Shown here one piece after another: positions 20,800 to 59,638 of a stretch of 64,000 bases of DNA (its first letter is position 1; every line of letters begins with the position of its first letter). Location: positions 331,223 through 395,222 of the forward strand of contig CAWGKP010000011.1 of assembly GCA_963823185.1 (NCBI GenBank), given 5' to 3'. A model generated the notes under the pieces. It saw only the letters and a program-made list of their open reading frames with translations, did no database searches and had not been told where the DNA came from. Origin of the DNA: an uncultured Acidobacteriota bacterium. GTDB taxonomy: Bacteria; Acidobacteriota; Thermoanaerobaculia; UBA5066; Gp7-AA6. A program made the position numbers and the translations under genes.

Positions 20800-21579
20800 C
20801 TAGCCCCGCGCCGGCGAGCCGGGCAGCAGCAGGTTGCGCACCACCTTGCCTTCGCCGCCCAGGCGGTCGAGGGCGCGCCCGTCCACGGTCACGCGCACGG
20901 CGCCCGCGTTTCCGAGCGTGAGGCGGAATCCCGCCTGCGCCTCGAAGCGCTTCGCCTCGCCCTGGCGGGCGAGGCCGGAGAACACCATGCGGCCGTCGGC
21001 CTCGAGCTGCGTCCAGGAATCGCCGTCGAACTCGAGGAGAAGCGAGACCCGGCCGGGAGTCGCCGGCGGCGCGGGATCGGGCGCAGGAGCCGGAGCCGCG
21101 ACCGGCTCGAGTCGCATCGCGGGCGTGGGCTCGCTCGAGAACGTCACGTTCTTGAGCGCCGGCGCCGCGGCGCGCGGCGCCGCGTGTCCGCGGAACGCGA
21201 GCGGGCGGCGCTCGGGATTCGCGATCAGTCCGAGGAGAAGGAGCAGGCCCGTCACCCCGCCGACGATCGTGCCGGCCGTCGCGCGGCGGCTTCTCCAGAA
21301 GCGCGAACGCGGCCGCGGCTTCTTCGGACCGGGCCCGTCCGGCGGCCTGCCGGCGAGATCCGCGAGATACGCGTTCACCTTCTCCTCGGGGTCGATGCCG
21401 AGGTGCCCGGCGTACGCGCGGATGAAGCCGCGCGTGAACGTCGGCGGCGGAAGCTTGCGCAGGTCACCGTCCTCGAGCGCCTGGAGAAGGCGCAGGGAGA
21501 TCTTCGTCGCCGACGAGATCTCTTCGAGCGAGATCTCCCGAACGACGCGTTCTCGTCTGAGCTCCTCTCCGAAGCTCAT
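20800..21579 (-). CDS. rodZ: RodZ-like cytoskeleton-associated protein (XRE-type HTH, TM segment, DUF4115-like C-terminus)
   Basis: The HTH is ISLEEISSATKISLRLLQALEDGD and FTRGFIRAYAGHLG. A TM segment (TIVGGVTGLLLLLGLI) and a C-terminal beta domain (LLLEFDGDSWTQLEADGR...VTVDG) follow. The start is ATG 21579. Confidence 0.7.
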   Translation of the reverse strand: MSFGEELRRERVVREISLEEISSATKISLRLLQALEDGDLRKLPPPTFTRGFIRAYAGHLGIDPEEKVNAYLADLAGRPPDGPGPKKPRPRSRFWRSRRATAGTIVGGVTGLLLLLGLIANPERRPLAFRGHAAPRAAAPALKNVTFSSEPTPAMRLEPVAAPAPAPDPAPPATPGRVSLLLEFDGDSWTQLEADGRMVFSGLARQGEAKRFEAQAGFRLTLGNAGAVRVTVDGRALDRLGGEGKVVRNLLLPGSPARG

Positions 21580-21632
21580 GGCAGGCGGTCCCGTCGTGCC
21601 TTTAGAACCCATCGGTGGGGAAGTAAGTCATG

Positions 21633-22298: not shown

Positions 22299-23102
22299 TT
22301 AGGGCTCTCCGCGCCGGCACGCGCCGGCGAGCTCGCGGGCCAGGCGCTCGACCGCCCGATCGCGGTCCGGGCCCGCCCGCTCCGCCGCGGCCACGAGGGC
22401 CGACCCGACGACGACGCCGTCGGCGAGCCGCGCCGCCTGCCGCGCCGACTCGGGCGTCGAGATCCCGAATCCGATCGCGATCGGGAGATCGCCGGCCGCG
22501 CGGCGGGCCCGCCGCGCCGTCGCCGCGAGGTCGCGCGGCAGGCTCGTCCGGGCGCCCGTCGTGCCGGGGCGGGAGACGACGTAGAGGAAGCCCGAGGACA
22601 GGCGCGCGGCCGCGCGCATCCTTGCGGCGGGCGACGTCGGCGAGACGAGGAAGACGGTGGCGAGGCCGCCGGCGCGCAGCGTCGCGGAGATCTCCGGCGC
22701 CTCCTCGGGCGGCAGGTCGGTCACGAGCACCGCGTCGAAGCCCGCCGCTTTCGCTTCTCCCGCGGCGCGGGCGATGCCGCGGCGGTGCAGCGGGTTGAGG
22801 TACGTGAAGAGGAGGAGCGCGAGGCGCGTCTCGCGGCGGATCCGATGCGCGATCTCGAACACGCGCGGGAGCGTCGTCCCGGCCGCGAGCGCCCGGGAGG
22901 CCGCGCGCTGGAGCACGGGGCCATCGGCGATCGGGTCCGTGAAGGGAACGCCGAGCTCGAGGACGTCGGCGCCCGCCCGCTCGAGGGCGCGGGCCAGCGC
23001 GACCGTCGCGTCGGCGTCGGGGTCGCCGGCGGTCAGATAGGCGAGGAAGGCGGCCCGCCGCTGCCGCCGGGCGGCCGCGAACGCTTCGGCGAGGCGGCTC
23101 AC
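22299..23102 (-). CDS. trpA: Tryptophan synthase alpha chain
   Basis: The sequence includes YLTAGDPD and [17 protein letters not shown]. The GTG start overlaps the trpB stop (GTGA). Confidence 0.9.
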
Positions 23103-24304
23103 GCCGGGGACCCGCGCAGGCGCGCGTATTCCTCGAGATCCTTGTCGCCGCGGCCCGAGAGGTTCACGAGCACCCAGCGGCTGCGGGGCATCTTCGACGC
23201 GAGCTTCGAGGCATACGCGACGGCGTGCGCGCTCTCGAGGGCCGGCACGATCCCCTCGGCGCGCGAGAGCGATTCGAAGGCGTCCAGCGCCTCGGCGTCC
23301 GAGACGGCGACGTAGGTCACGCGGCCCCGTTCGGCCAGAGCCGCGTGCTCGGGGCCCACGGCCGGATAGTCGAGGCCGGCCGAGACGGAATGGGTCGGGA
23401 GGATCTGCCCCGCGTCGTCCTGGAGGAGCATCGTGCGCGTCCCGTGCAGGACGCCGAGCGAGCCGCCCGAGAATCGCGCCGCGTGCTCCCCCGGCCCCGT
23501 TCCGCGGCCTCCGGCCTCCACGCCGTAGAGCTTCGTCTTCGAATTCGAACCGAGGAACGCCGAGAAGAGGCCGATCGCGTTCGAGCCGCCGCCGACGCAC
23601 GCGACCGCCGCATCGGGGTCGCGGCGCGCGATCTTGCGGAACTGCTTCCGCGCCTCGCGGCCGATGACGGACTGGAACTCCCGGACCATCGTCGGGTACG
23701 GGTGCGGCCCGAGCGCCGATCCGAGGACGTAGTGCGTCGTCGCGACGTTCTCGCTCCAGTCGCGCATCGCTTCGTTGATCGCGTCCTTGAGCGTCCTCGA
23801 GCCCGAATCGACGGCGATCACCTCGGCGCCGAGCAGGCGCATCCGCAGGACGTTCGGCGCCTGGCGCGCCATGTCGACCGACCCCATGTAGACGCGGCAC
23901 GGCAGCCCGATCTTCGCCGCGGCGGCGGCCGTCGCGACGCCGTGCTGACCCGCGCCGGTCTCCGCGATGACGCGGCGCTTCCCCATCCGCCGCGCGAGGA
24001 GCACCTGCCCGAGCGCGTTGTTGAGCTTGTGCGCGCCGGTGTGGAGGAGGTCCTCGCGCTTCAACGCGATGCGCGCGCCCTTGCTCCCGGCTGCCAGGCG
24101 ATCCGCGACCGTGATGGGCGTGGGTCGCCCCGCGTAGGTCGACAACAGCGCGTCGAGCTCCGCCCGGAACCGCCGGTCGCGCCGCCAGCGGTCGAACGCG
24201 CGCTCGAGCTCCTCGAGCGGCGCCATCAGGGTCTCGGGCGCGAAGCGGCCGCCGTACTCGCCGAAGTAGCCGGGCCGGGCCGAGGTCCTACGTCGCGGCG
24301 CCAT
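23099..24304 (-). CDS. trpB: Tryptophan synthase beta chain
   Basis: The sequence includes [24 protein letters not shown] (PLP Lys), GGGSNAIG and SAGLDYP. The start is ATG 24304. Confidence 0.93.
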
Positions 24305-24920
24305 CCGCGCTCCGCACCGCCTCGAAGAAGCGGCGCATCTTCTGGGCGTCCTTGACCCCCGGCGAGCTCTCGACGCCCGACGCGACGTCCACGCCCCAGG
24401 GCCGCGCGCGGCGAATCGCTTCGGCCACGTTGGCGGGATCGAGACCGCCGGCGAGAAGGACCGGCGCGCCGAACTCGCGCCCCGCGACGAGGCTCCAGTC
24501 GAAGCGCTTGCCGGTCCCTCCGGCGCGGCCGGGAACGCGCACGTCGAAGAGAACCGCCTTGCACTTCGAGAGCAGCTCCGGGGGCGGCGGTTTGGGGGCC
24601 GAGATCCCCATGTGCGCGACCGCGACGACCGGGACTCCATACGCGCCCGGGTCCTCGGGCGTCAGGCGCCGGTGAATCTGCACGAGGTCGAGACATGCCG
24701 CGTCGACCGTCTCGCGGATCATCGCCGGGCCCTCCGACACGAAGACGCCGACGCGCAGGACGCCGTCCCCCGCGGCCGACGCGAGGCGCCGCGCGGTCTC
24801 GGGGCTGACGCGCCGCGGCGACTCCGCCGAGAAGTTGAAGCCGACCCAGGCCGCGCCGAGCTCGCCCGCGAGCGCCGCGTCCTCGGGCCGCGTCAGGCCG
24901 CAGATCTTGACGGCCGTCAC
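24288..24920 (-). CDS. trpF: Phosphoribosylanthranilate isomerase
   Basis: The sequence includes [12 protein letters not shown] and [10 protein letters not shown]. The GTG start overlaps the trpC stop (GTGA). Confidence 0.85.
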
Positions 24921-25693
24921 GAGCGCAGCTCCCGCAGGAGCTCGACGGGATCCTCGGCGCGCAGGAGAGTCTCGCCCACGAGGAACGCGCGGTAGCCGGC
25001 CGCCGCAAGACGCGCCACGTCCTCGCGCGAGCGGATGCCGCTCTCCGCGAGGCGCACCGGACCCGGCGGGATCTCCGCGGCGAGCGTCTCGAGACGCGCC
25101 AGGTCCGTCGTGAAGGTCGCGAGGTCCCGCGCGTTGACGCCGAGAACGTCGGGCGCCGCCGCGGCGGCGCGTCGGATCTCCCCGCCGTCGTGCGCCTCCG
25201 CCACGACGGCGAGACCGCGGGCGCGCGCCGCGGCGGCGAGCCGCGAGAGCTCCTCGTCGGAGAGCGCCCGCACGATCAGGAGGATCGCATCCGCTCCCAG
25301 CGCGACCGCGAAGTCGAGCTGCGCCTCGTCCACGACGAAATCCTTCATCAGAGCCGGGAGGCCCGCGATCTTCTTCGCGCGCGGGAGCCACTCGGGCCGG
25401 CCGCCGAAGAAGTCCTGCTCGATGACGACCGAGAGGGCCGCCGCGTGGCCCCGGCGATACATCAGCGCGATCGTCTCGAGACGCCCCTCCGTCTCCGCCA
25501 CGATCTCCCCGGCCGACGGAGAGCGGCGTTTGATCTCGCCCACGATGCGGACGCCGGGCGCGCGCAGGGCCTCGACGAAGCTTCGCCCGTCCGAGGGGCG
25601 CTCCGCCGATCGGCCTCCTTGCGACGCGTACTCGCCCCGCGAGATCCGCTCGCGTTTGGCGGCGAGGATCTGCTCCAGGACGCCGCCGCTCAT
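24917..25693 (-). CDS. trpC: Indole-3-glycerol phosphate synthase
   Basis: The sequence includes IVGEIKRRSPSAG, LMKDFVVD, LGVNARDL and ESGI. The ATG overlaps the trpD stop (ATGA). Confidence 0.9.
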   Translation of the reverse strand: MSGGVLEQILAAKRERISRGEYASQGGRSAERPSDGRSFVEALRAPGVRIVGEIKRRSPSAGEIVAETEGRLETIALMYRRGHAAALSVVIEQDFFGGRPEWLPRAKKIAGLPALMKDFVVDEAQLDFAVALGADAILLIVRALSDEELSRLAAAARARGLAVVAEAHDGGEIRRAAAAAPDVLGVNARDLATFTTDLARLETLAAEIPPGPVRLAESGIRSREDVARLAAAGYRAFLVGETLLRAEDPVELLRELRS

Positions 25694-26742
25694 GCCGGCC
25701 GCGCGACCGGCGCGCCGGCCCGGGCGTTGCGCGACGCGTCGCGAAGCGCCTCGAAGACGGCGAGCGCGGCGCCGGAGTCGATCGCGCGCCGTCCGCGCTC
25801 GTAGCCGTCCGGCAGGTCCCGCGCCCGCCCCTCGACGACGAGCGCGAGCGCGGCGTTCAGCAGCGCCGTCTCGCGGAGCGCGCCGGACTCCCCCTCGAGC
25901 AGTCGCCGGAGCATCGCGGCGTTGCCCTCCGCGTCCGATCCCGCGAGCTCGGCCATCTCGACCGCGCGCTGCCGCAGCGTCGCGGGCTCGTAGCGCCAGG
26001 GCCGCGTCCAGCCCTCCTGGATCTCCACGCCGAACGCGGCGACGCCCGGCACGAGCTCGTCGAGCCCGTTCTCCGAATGGAAGACGACGGCGTGCTCCGT
26101 GCCGAGCGACGCGAGCGCGTCGGACAGCAGGCGCACGAGCTCCGGACGCCCGACGCCGATCATCTGGCGCGAGGCGCCGGCCGGGTTGGCCAGCGGTCCG
26201 AGCGCGTTGAAGATCGTGCGCACGCCGAGCTCGCGGCGCACCGTCCCGAGCTCCTTCATCGCCGGATGGAAGGACGGCGCGAAGAGGAACACGAGGCCGA
26301 CATCGTCGAGAATCCGTCCGGCGCCCGCCGGATCGAGCTCGACGTTCACGCCGCAGGCCGCGAGGACGTCCGCGGACCCCACGCGCGAGGTGATCGAGCG
26401 GTTCCCGTGCTTGGCCACCGACGCGCCCGCGCCGGCGGCCACGATCGCCGTCGCGGTCGAGACGTTGAAGAGGTCGCGCCCCAGCCCGCCCGGACCGCAG
26501 GTGTCGAGCAGCGGCTGCCGGCGGCTCTCGACGCGGCGCATCCGCGCCCGCAGCGCCGCCACCGCGCCGGCGACCTCGTCGGCCGTCTCGCCTCGCGTCG
26601 CGATGCCCAGGAGGATCGCGCCCTTCTGGGCCTCCGTGGCCTTGCCGTCCATGAGGTCCAGGAAGACTTCCTCGGCGAGGGCGCGCGAGAGGGTTTGGCG
26701 CGCCGCGACGACCTTCAGGCCCTCGGCCACGCGCGGGGTCAC
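25690..26742 (-). CDS. trpD: Anthranilate phosphoribosyltransferase
   Basis: The sequence includes DTCGPGGLGRDLFNVSTA, AKHGNRSITSRVGSADVL and IFNALGPLANP. The GTG start overlaps the trpG stop (GTGA). Confidence 0.9.
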   Translation of the reverse strand: MTPRVAEGLKVVAARQTLSRALAEEVFLDLMDGKATEAQKGAILLGIATRGETADEVAGAVAALRARMRRVESRRQPLLDTCGPGGLGRDLFNVSTATAIVAAGAGASVAKHGNRSITSRVGSADVLAACGVNVELDPAGAGRILDDVGLVFLFAPSFHPAMKELGTVRRELGVRTIFNALGPLANPAGASRQMIGVGRPELVRLLSDALASLGTEHAVVFHSENGLDELVPGVAAFGVEIQEGWTRPWRYEPATLRQRAVEMAELAGSDAEGNAAMLRRLLEGESGALRETALLNAALALVVEGRARDLPDGYERGRRAIDSGAALAVFEALRDASRNARAGAPVARPA

Positions 26743-27332
26743 GCGGCGCCTCCGCGCGCGCGCTCTCTCGCGATCGCCACGAAGTTCGCGAGCAGCTTCT
26801 CCCCTTCCGGCGTCAGGACGGACTCGGGGTGAAACTGAACGCCGAAGACCGGGAGGGCGCGGTGCGCGAGTCCCATGACGAGGCCGTCGTCGCTCCGGGC
26901 GGTGACCCGCAGATCGTCCGGCAGTCCCTCCTCGCGCACGACGAGCGAATGGTATCGCGCGGCCGGAAACGGGCTCGGCAGTCCCGCGAAGATTCCGCGG
27001 CCGTCGTGCGCCACCTCCGAGCTCTTCCCGTGGCGCGGCGTCGCGCGCTCGACGCGGGCGCCGTGCAGCGCGCCGAGCGCCTGATGGCCGAGGCACACGC
27101 CGAGAAGCGGAATGCGCTCGCGCTCCGCGGCCGAGATCATCGCCATCGACCGCCCCGCGTCCTCGGGACGGCCGGGCCCGGGCGAGACGACGACGGCCGC
27201 CGGGCGCCGCGTCACGACCGCGTCGGGATCGAACCGGTCGTTGCGCGCGACCTCGACGTCCGGGTCGAGCTTCCCGAGCGCCTGGACGAGATTCCAGGTG
27301 AAGGAGTCGTAGTTGTCGACGACGAAGATCAT
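26739..27332 (-). CDS. trpG: Anthranilate synthase component II (glutamine amidotransferase)
   Basis: The sequence includes DNYDSFTWNLV, GVCLGHQ (catalytic Cys) and FHPES. The ATG overlaps the trpE stop (ATGA). Confidence 0.9.
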   Translation of the reverse strand: MIFVVDNYDSFTWNLVQALGKLDPDVEVARNDRFDPDAVVTRRPAAVVVSPGPGRPEDAGRSMAMISAAERERIPLLGVCLGHQALGALHGARVERATPRHGKSSEVAHDGRGIFAGLPSPFPAARYHSLVVREEGLPDDLRVTARSDDGLVMGLAHRALPVFGVQFHPESVLTPEGEKLLANFVAIARERARGGAA

Positions 27333-28813
27333 TCGCCGCCCCGCGACCAGGCGCGCGCGATCTCGATCGCCCGGAAGAGCGCCGCCGCTTTACTCTCCGC
27401 CTCGCGATACTCCCGCTCGGGCACCGAGTCGGCCACGATGCCGGCGCCCGCCTGCACGCGGCAGACGCCGTCCTCGACGACCGCCGTGCGGATGGCGATC
27501 GCCATGTCGAGATTGCCCGCGTGGTCGAGGTAGCCGACCGCGCCCCCGTAAACGCCGCGCCGCGCGCCCTCCCATTGATCGATGCGCTCCATCGCGCGGA
27601 TCTTCGGCGCGCCCGTGAGCGTCCCGGCCGGAAAGCACGCCGCGAGCGCGTCGAGCGCGGACCGCGGCGCCGCCAGCCGGCCCGACACGTCGGAGACGAG
27701 ATGCTGCACGTGCGAGAACTTCTCGATCGCCGAATAACGATCGACCGTGACGCTCCCGATCTCGCAGACGCGCCCGAGGTCGTTGCGGGAGAGATCCACC
27801 AGCATGACGTGCTCGGCGCGCTCCTTCGGGTCGGCCGCCAACGCTTCCGCCAGCCGCGCGTCCTCGGCGGGCGTCGCCCCGCGGGGCGCGGTTCCGGCGA
27901 TCGGCCGCGTCTCGACCCGCCGGCCGCGGCATCTCACGAGCATCTCCGGCGAGGCGCCGAAGACGACGGCGTCCCGCGTCTGCAGATAGAAGAGGTAGGG
28001 CGAGGGGTTGAGAACGCGCAGCGCCCGGTACGCGTCGAACGGATCGGCGCCGAGCGGCGCGGTCCAGCGCTGCGACAGGACGACCTGGTAGATGTCGCCC
28101 GCGAAGATCGCTTCCCGGGCGAGCGCGACCCTCTCGAGGAACTCCTCGCGCGAGAGGAGCGCCTTCCATCCGTCAGGCGACATCGCGCCGCCCGCCGCCT
28201 CGGGCATCCGGCGGACCGGACCGACGGCCGGCGCCTCGGCGAGGAGCGACTCGAGGCGGTCGAGGCGCGCGGCGGCGCGGTCGGCCTCGGCCTCTTCGTC
28301 GCCCGGGCGCTGCGGCGCGAGCTCGGTCAGCAGGAGCAGACGGCGTCGCAGATGATCGAACGCGACGACGGCGTCGAAGTGGAGGAAGAGGCCGTCCGGA
28401 ATCCTTCCCTCGCGCGGATGGCGGTCCGGGATCGCCTCGAAGAGACGCACCGCGTCGTACCCGAGCCACCCGACCGCGCCGCCCGAGAGCGGCGGCAGGT
28501 CCGGATCGGGCACGAAGCCCTCGCGGACGACGAATCGCTCGAGCGCGGCCAGCGGAGCCTCGCCCGAGGGAGCCGCGCTCGCGCTCCCGATCTCGAATCG
28601 CGCGACCGGATCGCAGCCGAGGAACGTGTAGCGGCCCGTCTCGCCGGCCTCGACGCTCTCGAGGAGAAAGCACTCGCGGCCGTCGCGGCGCATGCGGTCG
28701 AGCAGCGCGACCGGCGTCACGGTGTCCGCCGCGAAGATGCGCGCGACCGGCACGACCGCGCCGGCGCGTGCCCTCGAGGCGAAGTGCCGGCGCTCGGCCT
28801 CGCGCACGTTCAC
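27329..28813 (-). CDS. trpE: Anthranilate synthase component I
   Basis: The sequence includes LLESVE, MLVDLSRNDLGRV, FPAGTLTGAPKIRAME and YGGAVGY. The GTG start overlaps the aroDE stop (GTGA). The 999-aa track ORF is a read-through artefact. Confidence 0.9.
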   Translation of the reverse strand: MNVREAERRHFASRARAGAVVPVARIFAADTVTPVALLDRMRRDGRECFLLESVEAGETGRYTFLGCDPVARFEIGSASAAPSGEAPLAALERFVVREGFVPDPDLPPLSGGAVGWLGYDAVRLFEAIPDRHPREGRIPDGLFLHFDAVVAFDHLRRRLLLLTELAPQRPGDEEAEADRAAARLDRLESLLAEAPAVGPVRRMPEAAGGAMSPDGWKALLSREEFLERVALAREAIFAGDIYQVVLSQRWTAPLGADPFDAYRALRVLNPSPYLFYLQTRDAVVFGASPEMLVRCRGRRVETRPIAGTAPRGATPAEDARLAEALAADPKERAEHVMLVDLSRNDLGRVCEIGSVTVDRYSAIEKFSHVQHLVSDVSGRLAAPRSALDALAACFPAGTLTGAPKIRAMERIDQWEGARRGVYGGAVGYLDHAGNLDMAIAIRTAVVEDGVCRVQAGAGIVADSVPEREYREAESKAAALFRAIEIARAWSRGGE

Positions 28814-30289
28814 GCGGCTCCCTTCGGGAGGAGCTCCGAGATCTCCTCGAGCGTCGCGTCCTTCGACCCGAAGAGCCGCGCCTGGCGCACGGCCTGCGCG
28901 GCGAACATCTGTATCCCTTCCACGACCGGGCAGCGCGCGGCGCGCGCCGCGGCGACGGTCGCCGTTTCCGATCCGTCGCGCCGATAGACGCAGTCGAAGA
29001 CCAGCGGGCGATTCTCGAGAACCGTCCGGGGGAAGGCCGGCGGATCGCCGGGGCGCGACCCGAGGGGTGTCGCGTTCAGGTACAGATCGGCTTCGCTCGC
29101 CGGAAGATCCGCGAGGGCCAGCGAGTCGACGTGCATCGCGTCCGCCAGGGCGTCCGCCGCGGCGTCGTCGCGGCCCGTGACGAGCACCTCGTATCCGAGG
29201 CGGCGCGCCGCGAGCACCGCCGCGCGCGCCGTTCCGCCGGTGCCGAGGATCACGGCCGTGCGGCCCTCCCCCGTATCGTGATCGGCCAGAGGATCGAAGA
29301 TGCCGTCGACGTCCGTGTTCTCGGCGCGCCAGCTTCCGCCGGCGCGCACGAGCGTGTTCGCCGCCTTCGTCTGCGCGACGTCCTCCGAGCCGCGCGCCGA
29401 CGCGGCCGCCGCCAGTTTCCAGGGCTGCGTGATCGAGAAGCCGCGGAAGGCGGGGTCGAACACGAGGTCCTGCGGGCGCGCGCGGTCCCAGTCGGCGACG
29501 GGAAGGGGCAGATAGAGATTCGGCAGCGACCGCGCGCGGAAGAGCGCGTTGTGGACGCGCGGCGAGAGCGACCCCGAGACGTCTGCGCCGACGATGCCGT
29601 AGAGCGCCTCGATTCGGCGAGGCGCGCTCGACCGCGTAGATGTCGAACAGATCCTCGAGCGGAATCTGCCCCGGAGCCGTCGCCGCCTCGACCGGGCCAT
29701 ACACGAGCGCGGAGCCCGAGAGCGCCGAGAGCACGCGGCCGGGCGCGCTCGCCGGCCCCATCGGAAAGATGGCCGCCGAGTCCCTCGCCTCGCGCGCCTG
29801 GATGGCCGCCACGGCGAGGCTCGCCGGAAGGTCCGCCGCGCCGCAGACGAGCTTGACCGCGCGCGCTCCGGCGGCGCGCATCGCGGAAAGCCGTTCCGCC
29901 CAGTCGGCCGGGAGGCCGAACGGCGCGTGGTGCGACACGATGACGCGGCGGCGATCCGGCAGCTCGCCCGGATCCGCGAGCAGGCCGCTCGCGTGCTCGA
30001 CGTCCACCGTGGCGCCGGCGGCGTACGCATCGCGGACGAGTCGCCGGTAGTCCTCGGCCGATCCCGAGAAGTCGCCTCCCTCGGCGCGCGTTCGCCAGGT
30101 CGCGACGACCGGCCGCGGGTCGAGCTCGAGGAGGCGGGCGGCCGGGATCGGCGCCGCCGCGCGGTCGAGGCGCATCTCGATCGCCGTCGCTTTCGGCGGC
30201 ACACGCGCGACGAGACGGCGCGCGTCGTCGAGGTCGCGCGGTGCGAGCGACGCGACGTAGGCCGGAATCGGAACGATTCGTTCGCTCAA
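28810..30289 (-). CDS. aroDE: Bifunctional 3-dehydroquinate dehydratase (type I) / shikimate dehydrogenase fusion; one frame break as sequenced
   Basis: The N-terminal half is AroD-like (IPAYVASL..ATAIEMRLD..VIVSHH..AVKLV). The C-terminal half is AroE (YGIVGADVSGSLSPRVHNALF, KAANTL, ILGTGGTARA, LNATPLG). The halves lie in different frames, joined at about 29611..29625. The start is probably TTG 30289. The length of 1480 nt (3n+1) fits a 1-nt indel. Confidence 0.75.
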
Positions 30290-30322
30290 AACGAAAACCC
30301 CCGAGCCCGTCCGGGCCGGGGG
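30288..30322 (-). terminator. Intrinsic terminator (attenuator terminator) immediately upstream of aroDE
   Basis: On the minus strand, CCCCCGGCCC-GGAC-GGGC(U)CGGGGG forms a 10-bp stem with one bulge (30322..30298). It is followed by UUUUCGUUUU (30297..30288). Confidence 0.75.
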
Positions 30323-30383
30323 TTCCATTCTGCCGCCTCTGGTTTCGCCCCGCCCGAACGAATTCGGCAGGGCGCAAGCCGCC

Positions 30384-30434
30384 CTACCGGGTCGCCTCCC
30401 GCCACCACCACGACCGAGCCGAGCGAATCTTCAT
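30384..30434 (-). CDS. trpL: Candidate trp operon leader peptide MKIRSARSWWWREATR (or 21 aa from in-frame ATG 30449)
   Basis: A mini-ORF below the track size cutoff. It has three consecutive TGG codons at 30410..30402 and its TAG stop at 30386..30384 inside a hairpin. It lies between the upstream gene's stop and the terminator preceding aroDE-trpEGDCFBA. No convincing SD was seen. Confidence 0.65.
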   Translation of the reverse strand: MKIRSARSWWWREATR

Positions 30435-30470
30435 GGGCCGGAGGATCATCCTGCAAAGGATCGGCCGAAG

Positions 30471-31724
30471 TCAATTCGAGGAAGGAGGAGTCGCGGTGGG
30501 CGCCGGCATCGGCGAAGCCGTCGGCGCAACGGCCCGGCGGTCGGCGCGGGTCGAGAAGGAGAGCGGCAGGTTCAGACCGGACTCCGACGACGGCGGCTTG
30601 CCCTGGAACGCGATCTCGATCGACGATCCGGTCCGGCGGTACACGTACCGTTCGCCGGGGCACGCGCGGGACGCGTCGTCCTCGAGGTTCGCGGGCCACT
30701 TGCCGTCGCGGGAGCCGGCGCGCGCGAGGCGCAGCTCGAGGATCTTCGACGTCAGCTCGGAGTCGATCGCCGACCTCCCCGCGCGCTCGAGGACGTTGCG
30801 AAGCTGCGGCACCTGCATGTCCGTCATGATCCGCGCCATCTCGGCCGAGTCGCCGCCCGAGTCGGTGCGGCGGTACTCCTCGATCATCGGCCTCGCGATC
30901 TCGTCGTTCGAGACCTCCGCGAGGGCGCACGGCGCGACATGGCGGAGCGGCTCGGCGGCGGCCTTGCGGGCGCGAACGCTCAAGTTCGAAAGCGCGGACG
31001 AGGACAGGAAGCTCTTCGGTTCCTCTTCGTAAGTGTCGAGAGCCCGGGTCCAGGGATCGTCGCGAGAGAGGCGATCGAGCCACGACACGGGCGGCTCGCG
31101 CAGCTTTCGGAGCGTCCCGGACTGCATCTTCATGACCGCGATCGCGAGCAGATCGTCGATCAGCTGGGAGCCGCGGGCGAAGGACTCGAAGATGGACCAG
31201 GAGGCTTCCAGAAACCGAGCGCTCTCTTCGGTTCGGCCTCGACGCTCCGCGGAGAGCGCGGCGGCGAGCAGGAGTCGATCCAGCCGGATGAGCGCCAGGG
31301 CGCGCGGCGCGACGCCCTCCCGGGAGCTGATCGGCCGACGACCACTCCGGCACTCCCTTCTCGAGCGCCGCGACGACCGGCCAGAGAGCTCCTTGACGGC
31401 TCTCGAGAAAGTCCCGGAGGCTCTTCGGCTCCTCGCCGATCGAGTCGTCCGCGACGGAGAGCTGCGCGTTGAGCCAGCCGCCGGCGCCCGAAGCCGTGAA
31501 CGGCCTCGACGCTCTCGGGCGAGGCCCGGTCGAAGCGGGAGTCGCCCGGCTCGAACTCGATGCCGAGGGCGGGCCCCCTGCGGCAGAGCTCGTCGGCAAC
31601 CGAGTTGCGTGGCCGGGCCCGACGGCTTCGGGACGAGGTCCTCGGCGCGCGGGGCGGGAGTCGTCTGTCCCGAGGAGCTCGCCGCGGCAAGGAGGAGAAC
31701 GAACGCCGCGGCGACGCGGCTCAC
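30471..31724 (-). CDS. Secreted hypothetical protein downstream of cysS; apparently three frame breaks as sequenced
   Basis: GTG 31724 overlaps the cysS stop (GTGA). The signal peptide is VSRVAAAFVLLLAAASSSGQ. Plausible non-low-complexity translation passes through three frames, with breaks near 31595..31607, 31478..31500 and 31312..31330. The last ~270 aa (LALIRLDRLLLAAALSAE...IEIAFQGKPP) are in one frame. No family was recognised, so the reconstruction rests on composition only. Confidence 0.4.
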   Translation of the reverse strand: MSRVAAAFVLLLAAASSSGQTTPAPRAEDLVPKPSGPATQLGCRRALPQGARPRHRVRAGRLPLRPGLARERRGRSRLRAPAAGSTRSSPSRTTRSARSRRASGTFSRAVKELSGRSSRRSRRECRSGRRPISSREGVAPRALALIRLDRLLLAAALSAERRGRTEESARFLEASWSIFESFARGSQLIDDLLAIAVMKMQSGTLRKLREPPVSWLDRLSRDDPWTRALDTYEEEPKSFLSSSALSNLSVRARKAAAEPLRHVAPCALAEVSNDEIARPMIEEYRRTDSGGDSAEMARIMTDMQVPQLRNVLERAGRSAIDSELTSKILELRLARAGSRDGKWPANLEDDASRACPGERYVYRRTGSSIEIAFQGKPPSSESGLNLPLSFSTRADRRAVAPTASPMPAPTATPPSSN

Positions 31725-59563: not shown

Positions 59564-59638
59564 GCGGGCATAGTTCAGCGGTAGAACGCCAGCTTCCCAA
59601 GCTGGATGTCGCCGGTTCGATCCCGGTTGCCCGCTCCA
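59564..59638 (+). tRNA. tRNA-Gly (anticodon CCC), CCA encoded
   Basis: Acceptor GCGGGCA/TGCCCGC, D arm GTTC-AGCGGTA-GAAC, anticodon arm CCAGC-TTCCCAA-GCTGG, T arm GCCGG-TTCGATC-CCGGT, discriminator T, then CCA. Confidence 0.92.

Follow-up and report, generated by a model that had tools for sequence, protein, structure and literature searches.

A putative ribosome-mediated transcription attenuator upstream of the aroDE-trp operon in Thermoanaerobaculia

How the operon aroDE-trpEGDCFBA is controlled was the question raised by the gap ahead of its first gene in the window (the whole stretch of 64,000 nucleotides that was analysed, from an uncultured bacterium of the Acidobacteriota). To our knowledge, the class Thermoanaerobaculia, to which it belongs, is known almost only from metagenome-assembled genomes, and its gene regulation is essentially unstudied. 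The initial annotation had proposed that the gap contains a leader peptide with tandem Trp codons and a chain of alternative hairpins, acting as an attenuator. This interpretation was supported by the conservation of the element at 58 loci, by a fold better than that of shuffled sequences, and by the appearance of His codons in the leader where his genes enter the operon. The element was read as a ribosome-mediated (leader-peptide) transcription attenuator controlling aroDE-trpEGDCFBA, with a probability of about 85%. The mechanism is already known from the trpL and hisL leaders of E. coli and would not be changed by the element, which was well supported in silico as a predicted further case of it.

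Leader gene, promoter and regulated operon

The genes and signals of the locus were as follows.

22299..30289, minus strand: operon aroD(E)-trpE-G-D-C-F-B-A, from Pfam matches
30289..30287, minus strand: start codon TTG of aroD, from homology to relatives
30469..30474, minus strand: -35 hexamer TTGACT, from the promoter scan and conservation
30445..30450, minus strand: -10 hexamer GATGAT, after a spacer of 18 nt, from the promoter scan and conservation
30384..30434, minus strand: leader ORF (trpL-like), MKIRSARSWWWREATR followed by TAG, 16 codons, with ATG at 30434..30432 and TAG at 30386..30384
30402..30410, minus strand: three tandem Trp codons (TGG x3), putatively regulatory, five codons from the stop, from the sequence

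The Pfam matches in the operon were DHquinase_I, Shikimate_dh_N, Chorismate_bind, GATase, Glycos_transf_3, IGPS, PRAI, PALP and Trp_syntA. The first regulated gene was a fused aroDE, and the gene order of the operon was kept in the relatives. The start of aroD proposed earlier, TTG 30289, was borne out, as the homology to relatives begins at this codon. The ATG at 30328 given in the ORF list was rejected: with this start, the conserved terminator would become part of the aroD reading frame, and the codon lies ahead of the point where homology begins. The gap was also free of any other supported gene, since the long ORFs overlapping it on either strand had no Pfam match.

The mini-ORF described in the initial annotation was found with its ATG at 30434, its three TGG codons at 30410..30402 and its TAG at 30386..30384. 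Its length among the homologues was 14–19 codons, in frame with an invariant TAG, in all 42 genomes and in 17 metagenome contigs; a leader gene of this size is missed by gene callers. The Trp run of the relatives was WWW, WW, WRW or WCW at the equivalent position, four to six codons ahead of the stop, and the C-terminal part of the peptide was conserved as W-W-W-R-E-x-x-R. The alternative start suggested earlier, ATG 30449, lies inside the -10 hexamer and is hence not expected to be transcribed, so that 30434 was taken as the leader start.

The promoter had been described as a weak match, a description that did not hold. In 41 of 42 homologues, TTGAC(A/T) stood at a constant distance from the leader start, and in the window the upstream gene ends within the -35 hexamer, at its TGA stop codon (30473..30471). 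The -10 hexamer was GATGAT in 22 of 41 sequences and a TAnnnT-type hexamer at the same place in the rest. Moreover, the pattern scanner, which also picks up the terminator (helix D below), returned TTGACT-18 nt-GATGAT as the sole promoter-like site in 1 kb, with 0.0 expected. The leader ATG stands 10 nt past the -10 hexamer, and this distance was 6–11 nt in 41 of 42 sequences. Such a geometry suggests a transcript with a 5' UTR of about 0–4 nt, leaderless or nearly so, which would explain why the leader has no ribosome-binding site.

Alternative helices and their conservation

The predicted helices between the Trp codons and the aroD start were as follows.

30388..30401, minus strand: hairpin P0, CGGG-AGGCGA-CCCG, between the Trp codons and the leader stop
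30365..30389, minus strand: helix A, CGGUAGGGCG (30389..30380) with CGCCCUGCCG (30374..30365), 10 bp, -20.2 kcal/mol
30346..30374, minus strand: helix B, putative anti-antiterminator, CGCCCUGCCGAA (30374..30363) with UUC-G-GGCGGGGCG (30358..30346), 12 bp with one bulge, -20.1 kcal/mol
30310..30358, minus strand: helix C, putative antiterminator, UUCGGGCGGGG (30358..30348) with CCCCG-G-CCCGGA (30321..30310), 11 bp with one bulge, -20.0 kcal/mol
30288..30324, minus strand: helix D, putative intrinsic terminator, AACCCCCGGCCC (30324..30313), loop GGAC, GGGC-U-CGGGGGUU (30308..30296), stem -23.7 kcal/mol, then the U tract UUUUCGUUUU (30297..30288), which reaches the aroD start

Helices A to D, near-equal in energy in the window, were predicted to be mutually exclusive, each sharing a strand with its neighbours. 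Helix A encloses the leader stop codon, and its 3' arm is shared with B. Helix C takes one strand from the 3' arm of B and draws the other from the terminator, where it occupies the 5' arm and a portion of the loop. The hairpin 30389..30380 with 30374..30365 and the terminator (here delimited as 30324..30296, followed by UUUUCGUUUU) had both been recognized in the initial annotation. The two pairings reported between them were real, but longer than had been thought: CCGAA/TTCGG (30367..30363 with 30358..30354) belongs to the 12 bp of B, and GGGCGGGG (30355..30348) with CCCCGGCCC (30321..30313) to the 11 bp of C, each helix having one bulge. The 191-nt RNA folded at -100.8 kcal/mol (z = -3.2), and none of 200 shuffled sequences was as good, in agreement with the structured leader that had been proposed.

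Hairpin P0 was weak (about -7 kcal/mol), and its 3' arm overlaps helix A by the first 2 nt. A different hairpin sequence (CGUCUC/GAGGCG or GAGACG) occupied the site in L027 and L029–L035. The P0 segment gave a mean z of -2.0 against shuffles, with z below -1 in 32 of 42 sequences. P0 may have a role in the relay.

The element was found upstream of aroDE in 41 genomes of Thermoanaerobaculia/Acidobacteriota and in 17 metagenome contigs, which gave 58 loci in total. The ORF, the Trp codons, the hairpin chain and the terminator were kept in these homologous loci, as the attenuator reading had anticipated. With the covariance model, every one of the 41 related genomes showed a single copy upstream of aroD (68–153 bits), and the window showed no second copy. 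The AroD of these genomes was just 50–91% identical, and the helix strands held invariant base runs. A pattern scan of metagenomes yielded the 17 further copies and none of the scaffold before operons other than aroDE; about 100 of its 120 matches were rejected as chance or unrelated hairpins lacking the terminator, the promoter and a Trp/His leader. In Rfam, no relevant family, T-box included, was matched in 29800..31000 at E-values up to 10, no relevant leader family in the whole window at the gathering score, and no relevant family in three relatives (L018, L030 and L009) at E-values up to 1. An RNA family absent from Rfam is thereby defined, with 58 examples and a working covariance model.

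Helix A was 98% paired over 42 sequences and almost invariant, and gave no covariation signal. Helix B was 90% paired across the homologues, three of its pairs being altered on both sides, and its covariation score by column counts was equalled by 4 of 500 shuffles. Neither A nor the greater part of B varies much, and so they carry little covariation. Helix C, 87.6% paired, was present in all 42 homologues with energies from -16.5 to -29 kcal/mol, and its column-count score was equalled by 1 of 500 shuffles. Column counts for terminator D gave no pair changed on both sides, and pairing with the partner shifted by one column was almost as good. This lack of column covariation was attributed to MAFFT and Infernal, which leave one-column register shifts where the loop or bulge differs; the same caveat holds for part of the column count of C. 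The column test of D was replaced by folding each sequence and by comparing cognate with non-cognate strands. All 42 homologues had a hairpin of -18 to -27 kcal/mol followed by U4-5, and the cognate arms of D outpaired the non-cognate ones (0 of 2000 permutations). For helix C, the mean duplex energy was -23.6 kcal/mol for cognate and -21.2 kcal/mol for non-cognate strands (0 of 2000 permutations).

Proposed switch and rival explanations

In the proposed mechanism, transcription would start from the conserved sigma-70-type promoter a few nucleotides before ATG 30434, and the leader ORF would be translated from an mRNA with little or no 5' UTR. Under a shortage of Trp-tRNA, translation would stall at the three UGG codons, with the leading edge of the ribosome short of helix A. 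Helix A would then form and hold the strand that B requires, so that the G-rich strand of B would be left free. This strand would pair with the 5' arm of the terminator in helix C, and RNA polymerase would continue into aroDE-trp. With abundant Trp, the ribosome would advance to the UAG inside helix A and would cover the 5' arm of A. The released 3' arm would pair into B once its partner strand was transcribed and C would be blocked, upon which D would form and transcription would end at the U tract just ahead of aroD. The coupling of ribosome and polymerase and the response in vivo are presumed in this scheme, and the element would imply tight transcription-translation coupling, probably with leaderless translation, in Thermoanaerobaculia.

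The effect of ribosome position was evaluated by footprint folding, a thermodynamic model, in 42 homologues. In the full transcript at equilibrium, the terminator was in the minimum-energy structure for most homologues at any ribosome position; therefore, the switch must be kinetic, and equilibrium folding of the full leader cannot reveal it. Partial transcripts, cut before the 3' arm or before the 5' arm of the terminator, were folded instead, with the ribosome modelled at various positions. In the transcript cut before the 3' arm, the antiterminator was in the minimum-energy structure of all 42 homologues when the ribosome edge lay between 12 and 3 nt ahead of the U of UAG, as expected of a ribosome stalled at the regulatory codons. 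The number decreased to 13 of 42 with the edge 9–12 nt past the U, the position of a terminating ribosome, and was again 42 of 42 once the edge had moved more than 21 nt past it; with no ribosome, the antiterminator was favoured in 33 of 42. In the transcript cut before the 5' arm, a ribosome at the stop left the G-rich strand held in B in 40 of 42 homologues, as opposed to 10 of 42 for one at the last Trp codon. In 22 of 42 homologues, the antiterminator remained the thermodynamically best structure even for a ribosome at the stop.

A helix between the G-rich strand and the coding part of the leader, similar to 1:2 of E. coli, appeared in the minimum-energy structure of the window and in 36 of 42 ribosome-free transcripts cut before the 5' arm. 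It was rejected, as it could not be separated from generic GC-rich pairing.

Two other modes of action could replace or accompany termination. Helix D may, as the initial annotation suggested, hide a GGGGG run (30302..30298) that lies 8 nt ahead of the TTG start of aroD, and stalling in the leader might open aroD translation rather than, or besides, preventing termination. This run is the sole purine-rich one ahead of the aroD start, it lies within the 3' arm of D, and D, as the most stable helix, could re-form on read-through transcripts. In the relatives, the start codon always follows GGGGG by 8–13 nt, a constant arrangement but a long spacing for a ribosome-binding site, and the conserved U4-5 directly past a GC stem of -18 to -27 kcal/mol is a hallmark of intrinsic termination. 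Translational attenuation, on its own or layered on transcriptional control, was considered improbable. The terminated leader transcript (about 140 nt) or the peptide may act in trans beside the attenuation in cis. A precedent is given by rnTrpL and peTrpL of Sinorhizobium meliloti, which are reported to act in trans (PMC6614838, PMC7298713), and the C-terminal part of the peptide is conserved here. However, the RNA constraints from P0 and helix A fully explain this conservation, and an action in trans was judged unlikely.

The conserved blocks of the leader resemble riboswitch cores in their extreme nucleotide conservation, and the RNA might sense a ligand, a tRNA or a protein directly (riboswitch, T-box or TRAP-like), with the small ORF being incidental. 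Nevertheless, every conserved block was accounted for by its membership in two alternative helices, and the start position, reading frame and stop codon of the leader were all conserved. Furthermore, the codon run (WWW to HHWHH) was the sole part varying with operon content. Together with the empty Rfam search, T-box included, at E-values up to 10, this made direct sensing highly improbable. The hairpin and U tract are located downstream of the upstream gene (stop at 30471) and could be its terminator, with the Trp mini-ORF arising by chance. On the other hand, a conserved promoter lies between that stop and the terminator, the antiterminator pairing co-varies, and the ORF with its Trp codons is kept in 58 loci, three tandem Trp codons being very unlikely by chance. 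This explanation was hardly credible, and attenuation by the translated leader was retained as the preferred reading.

Known attenuators and recoding of the leader

The element resembles E. coli trpL in its short leader ORF with tandem Trp codons and in a terminator just before the first structural gene. The antiterminator likewise shares a strand of the terminator, and the outcome is predicted to depend on whether the ribosome is stalled or at the stop. However, there was no homology in sequence or structure and no match to the Rfam family Trp_leader. The chain A/B/C/D has one link more than 1:2, 2:3 and 3:4 of trpL, the stop codon lies inside the first helix, and three Trp codons are found in place of two. 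In addition, the leader has no ribosome-binding site, its start is probably leaderless, and the first regulated gene is the fused aroDE and not trpE. The hisL leader of E. coli and Salmonella is a multi-helix relay, modelled as A:B, B:C, C:D, D:E and E:F. Here too, a relay of mutually exclusive helices would carry the ribosome position to a distant terminator, through five successive helices when P0 is counted. In contrast, the sequences are unrelated, hisL has seven tandem His codons whereas three Trp codons or HHWHH are found here, and P0 is weak and overlaps A by 2 nt only, which makes it an uncertain link of the relay.

Leaderless leader peptides, including one for trpEGD, have been documented in Deinococcus deserti (PMC4007540). 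Such peptides are translated from the very 5' end of the mRNA, as predicted for the leader studied here. Like the trpEGD leader, it has Trp codons, no ribosome-binding site and trp genes downstream, in a genome that is high-GC and non-proteobacterial. The present element differs in its phylum, its unrelated RNA sequence and an operon that starts with aroDE, and its transcription start is deduced from promoter geometry alone. Furthermore, trp attenuators of the actinobacteria Corynebacterium glutamicum and Streptomyces venezuelae are cited in PMC4833913. No earlier description of the element, or of such a switch in Acidobacteriota, was found in the literature searched; the sequence and folding results suggest that classical ribosome-mediated attenuation extends to this phylum, in the class Thermoanaerobaculia.

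The regulatory codons agreed with the pathway encoded downstream, WWW going with aroDE-trp and HHWHH with aroDE-his(-trp). Every Trp-type leader with enough downstream sequence was followed directly by aroDE-trpE. Among the HHWH(H/Y) leaders with enough downstream sequence, six of six preceded aroDE-hisZGD (L018, L020, L051, L058, L139 and L166). In one clade of Thermoanaerobaculia, a whole his operon (hisZGDCBHAFIE) lies between aroDE and trpE, and the leader reads HHWHH and not WWW; the operon of L166 is aroDE-hisZGDCBHAFIE-trpEG, and its leader keeps one Trp codon. In L028, a nested lineage without the his insertion, the leader reads NGWRN. The in silico comparison indicated that the recoding belongs to one clade and goes back to one or two events in evolution rather than to eight separate ones. 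We somewhat favour the view that the scaffold was reprogrammed when the his genes were inserted: with WWW changed to HHWHH, it would have become a leaderless sensor of His and Trp for an aro-his-trp super-operon, with the His codons lost again in L028 and the downstream helices untouched, so that specificity would act as a swappable cassette. The change of WWW to HHWHH with the his insertion would then be a natural experiment in which specificity is set by the codon cassette and not by the RNA fold.

Mixed regulatory codons are found in the E. coli thr attenuator (Thr and Ile) and in that of ilvGMEDA (Leu, Val and Ile), and HHWHH likewise pairs two end products. We know of no described attenuator that combines His and Trp codons. 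Compared with thr and ilvGMEDA, the His and Trp leader would have arisen by the recoding of an existing Trp attenuator upon the his insertion.

Leader region and promoter in the window

The gap on the minus strand between the TGA stop of the upstream gene (30473..30471) and the TTG start of aroD (30289) was 180 nt long, and the candidate attenuator was laid out as follows.

Features of the leader region in the window
30474..30445, minus strand: promoter TTGACT-18-GATGAT, from the pattern scanner
ATG 30434 to TAG 30386..30384, minus strand: leader ORF, encoding MKIRSARSWWWREATR
30410..30402, minus strand: TGG TGG TGG, the Trp codons of the leader ORF
30401..30388, minus strand: small hairpin P0, between the Trp codons and helix A
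30389..30380 with 30374..30365, minus strand: helix A, containing the stop codon, −20.2 kcal/mol
30374..30363 with 30358..30346, minus strand: helix B, anti-antiterminator, −20.1 kcal/mol
30358..30348 with 30321..30310, minus strand: helix C, antiterminator, −20.0 kcal/mol
30324..30313 with 30308..30296, minus strand: helix D, terminator, −23.7 kcal/mol; GC-rich hairpin 30324..30296, then UUUUCGUUUU

The mini-ORF with three TGG codons, the hairpin enclosing its stop codon, the CCGAA/UUCGG hairpin, the pairing GGGCGGGG/CCCCGGCCC and the terminator were all present as proposed in the initial annotation, and the terminator was also reported by the pattern scanner. One strand was common to each successive pair of helices A, B, C and D. 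The promoter match, previously called weak, was the sole promoter-like site in 29900..30900 (0.0 expected), and its geometry was kept in relatives. The 191-nt RNA folded at −100.8 kcal/mol, compared with −86.0 ± 4.6 in dinucleotide shuffles (z = −3.2), and 0/200 shuffles equaled it, as had been anticipated for an attenuator. The features of the leader region exceeded chance expectation. Pfam had no match for the long ORFs overlapping the gap, where a different gene had been considered as a rival, and it confirmed aroD, aroE, trpE, trpG, trpD, trpC, trpF, trpB, and trpA downstream (30289 to 22299, minus strand).

Across the homologues, the leader start codon lay 35–40 nt from the T that opens the −35 hexamer, which placed it 6–11 nt past the −10 hexamer. 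If transcription begins at the usual site, about 7 nt past that hexamer, a 5′ UTR of about 0–4 nt is expected, and translation of the leader would be leaderless or nearly so, which would account for the absence of a good ribosome-binding site noted earlier. By the same geometry, ATG 30449, once offered as an alternative start, fell inside the −10 hexamer and was therefore rejected. Leaderless leader peptides have been mapped in Deinococcus deserti, one of them for trpEGD (PMC4007540).

Conservation and recoding of the leader peptide

An AroD-domain scan with one genome per species gave 45 loci, all from metagenome-assembled genomes of Thermoanaerobaculia/Acidobacteriota, with AroD 50–91% identical to that of the window. 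The element was carried within the upstream 230 nt in 41 of them, so that the proposed alignment of relatives bore out leader ORF, hairpin blocks, and promoter alike. The promoter consisted of TTGAC(A/T), a spacer of 17–18 nt and a −10 hexamer whose second base was A and whose sixth was T. The leader ORF had 14–19 codons and an invariant TAG end in the 41 loci, and the conserved blocks were CGGUAGGGCG, CGCCCUGCCG, UCGG(G/C)CGGGGCG, ACCCCCGGCCCG, and GGGCUCGGGGGUUUU. No Rfam family matched the region at E-values up to 10. The covariance model derived from our alignment found exactly one copy per locus (68–153 bits), with a single copy in the 64-kb window (30284..30437, minus strand) and no second one anywhere in it. 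Another 17 genuine copies, every one upstream of aroDE, came from a pattern scan of metagenome contigs; about 100 other matches were unrelated and did not have the rest of the element.

The homologous locus L038 (3770-4000) had no promoter, leader ORF or helices A to C, and of the terminator it kept just the end (..GGTCGGGGGTTTTTGTTTTGAGC) in front of aroD; the genome is a long-read one, and a deletion, a rearrangement or a misassembly may be responsible. The proteins of locus L044 appeared just 40–52% identical because of 194 gap positions in an alignment with 89.5% DNA identity to the window over 8.6 kb; it is an indel-rich long-read assembly and not a distant relative.

The leader peptides ended in WWWRExxR* in most genomes, with WW, WRW, WRRW, WCW, and CCW as other versions, and the regulatory codons were always four to six codons from the stop. 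UGC and UGU differ from UGG by a single base. Cys codons mixed with Trp codons (CCW, WCW) were observed in the leaders of five homologous loci (L031, L073, L076, L087, and L163) and may reflect either added Cys sensing or neutral drift; cysS is the gene two positions upstream. Directly after the Trp codons inside the leader ORF, a conserved GGGAGG run resembling a ribosome-binding site was found (30392..30400 in the window). Most WWW-type homologues had it in the equivalent position, in the P0 loop and 5′ arm, and no start codon came after it. The run could be purely structural, or it could slow the ribosome by pairing with its anti-Shine-Dalgarno sequence.

Eight leaders possessed HHWHH or HHWHY in place of WWW. 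In all six His-type loci with sufficient downstream sequence (L018, L020, L051, L058, L139, and L166), aroDE was followed by hisZ-hisG-hisD and not by trpE, while every Trp-type leader with sufficient downstream sequence was followed directly by aroDE-trpE. The longest contig, L166, had the order aroDE-hisZ-G-D-C-B-H-A-F-IE-trpE-trpG, with the hisIE stop overlapped by the trpE start, which indicates that aroDE and trpE were separated by the insertion of a complete his operon, giving a predicted aro-his-trp super-operon. In the AroE tree, the His-type leaders formed one clade derived from Trp-type ancestors, consistent with one or two recoding events and not eight independent ones. Nested in this clade, L028 (leader 3854-4006) was without the his insertion, trpE directly following aroDE. 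Its leader read GNGWRNEVNR. Of the four codons other than Trp in the regulatory stretch (NGWRN), three were each one base from a His codon, which suggests that the insertion was lost secondarily and that the regulatory codons have decayed. The HHWHH leader held four His codons and one retained Trp codon. Since the downstream helices were unchanged, the change from WWW to HHWHH would be predicted only by a codon-reading (ribosome-mediated) sensor. A leader recoded to sense both His and Trp would be a notable extra of the system.

Covariation and ribosome-position folding

Helix A was 98% paired and nearly invariant, and therefore uninformative on covariation. Helix B was 90% paired, with both sides changed in three pairs (for example, CCGA/UCGG to CCCG/CGGG in L024 and to CCGG/CCGG in L025), and helix C was 87.6% paired, with register shifts of the alignment touching some of its columns. 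The controls ignore phylogeny and yield counts rather than probabilities: the covariation score was matched by 4/500 shuffles for helix B and 1/500 for helix C, and cognate strands paired better than non-cognate ones, independently of the alignment, for helix C (−23.6 vs −21.2 kcal/mol; 0/2000 permutations) and likewise for the arms of helix D (0/2000). The advantage in helix C came from covariation between the terminator loop and the bases immediately 5′ of the G-rich strand, with UUCGG:CCGGA in one clade and CAUCGG:CCCGAUG in another. No column covariation was found for helix D in the alignment; all 42 homologues (the window and 41 related genomes) nevertheless formed it, at energies between −18 and −27 kcal/mol and with indels that compensated for bulges. 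A different hairpin sequence occupied the place of P0 in L027 and L029-L035. P0 folded better than shuffles (mean z = −2.0), and its role as a further relay link or pause element is speculative.

The ribosome was modelled as an unpaired 5′ block, and the transcript was folded as just before the 3′ arm of the terminator is made. When the leading edge stopped 12 to 3 nt short of the U in UAG, corresponding to an A site on any regulatory codon, helix C was in the minimum-energy structure of 42/42 homologues. The count fell to 13/42 with the edge 9–12 nt beyond the U, the expected place of a ribosome with UAG in the A site, and returned to 42/42 beyond 21 nt, where the strand common to A and B would be covered too. 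In the transcript before the 5′ arm of the terminator, the G-rich strand was locked in helix B in 40/42 with the ribosome at the stop, compared with 10/42 at the last Trp codon.

These foldings suggest a relay in which a stalled ribosome would leave helix A intact, B would be blocked, C would form, and polymerase would read through. A terminating ribosome would melt A, allowing B to form and block C, so that D would form and transcription would terminate. At equilibrium, the terminator was present in the full transcript of most homologues at any ribosome position, and the antiterminator was still the thermodynamic optimum in 22/42 with the ribosome at the stop; on these model results the decision would have to be kinetic (co-transcriptional). 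With no ribosome, the leader coding region paired with the G-rich strand in the minimum-energy fold of 36/42 transcripts before the terminator 5′ arm, which could be an effect of GC content. In addition, the GGGGG 8 nt before the aroD TTG was the only purine run there, and the start codon of relatives lay 8–13 nt after it; helix D possibly also masks this putative ribosome-binding site, as proposed initially.

Known attenuators and the operon surroundings

In E. coli trpL, the termination decision is kinetic (co-transcriptional). The Acidobacteriota element would work in the same way as this attenuator, is like hisL in its multi-helix relay, and resembles the leader peptides of Deinococcus and actinobacteria in its presumed leaderless translation; it belongs to none of the Rfam leader families. 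As modelled, it has all those defining features of ribosome-mediated attenuators that can be tested by computation, and we put the probability of this mechanism for the aroDE-trp operon at roughly 0.85. It would be a known kind of attenuator in a phylum for which the literature searched held no description of one.

In the window, an additional base near 29627 that the closest relatives do not have (gaGcgcgcc, compared with ga-cgcgcc in L001 and L002; junction 29570..29689, minus strand) put aroE out of frame with aroD; in those relatives, AroD and AroE were fused in frame into a single protein of about 490 residues. The extra base is probably an assembly indel, a real frameshift being the alternative, and it created an artefactual 999-aa ORF (27329..30328) that leads from aroD into trpE by way of aroE read in the wrong frame.

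The TGA stop of the upstream gene sat inside the −35 hexamer (T-TGA-CT), both in the window (30471..30474) and in L018 (~3812-3817). This gene encoded a conserved hypothetical protein that has no Pfam domain and probably carries a signal peptide. The gene after trpA (20800..21612, minus strand) encoded a RodZ-like protein with HTH_25 and RodZ_C domains. Two tRNA genes, 1015..1086 (+) and 59564..59635 (+), were the only Rfam matches of the window at the gathering score.
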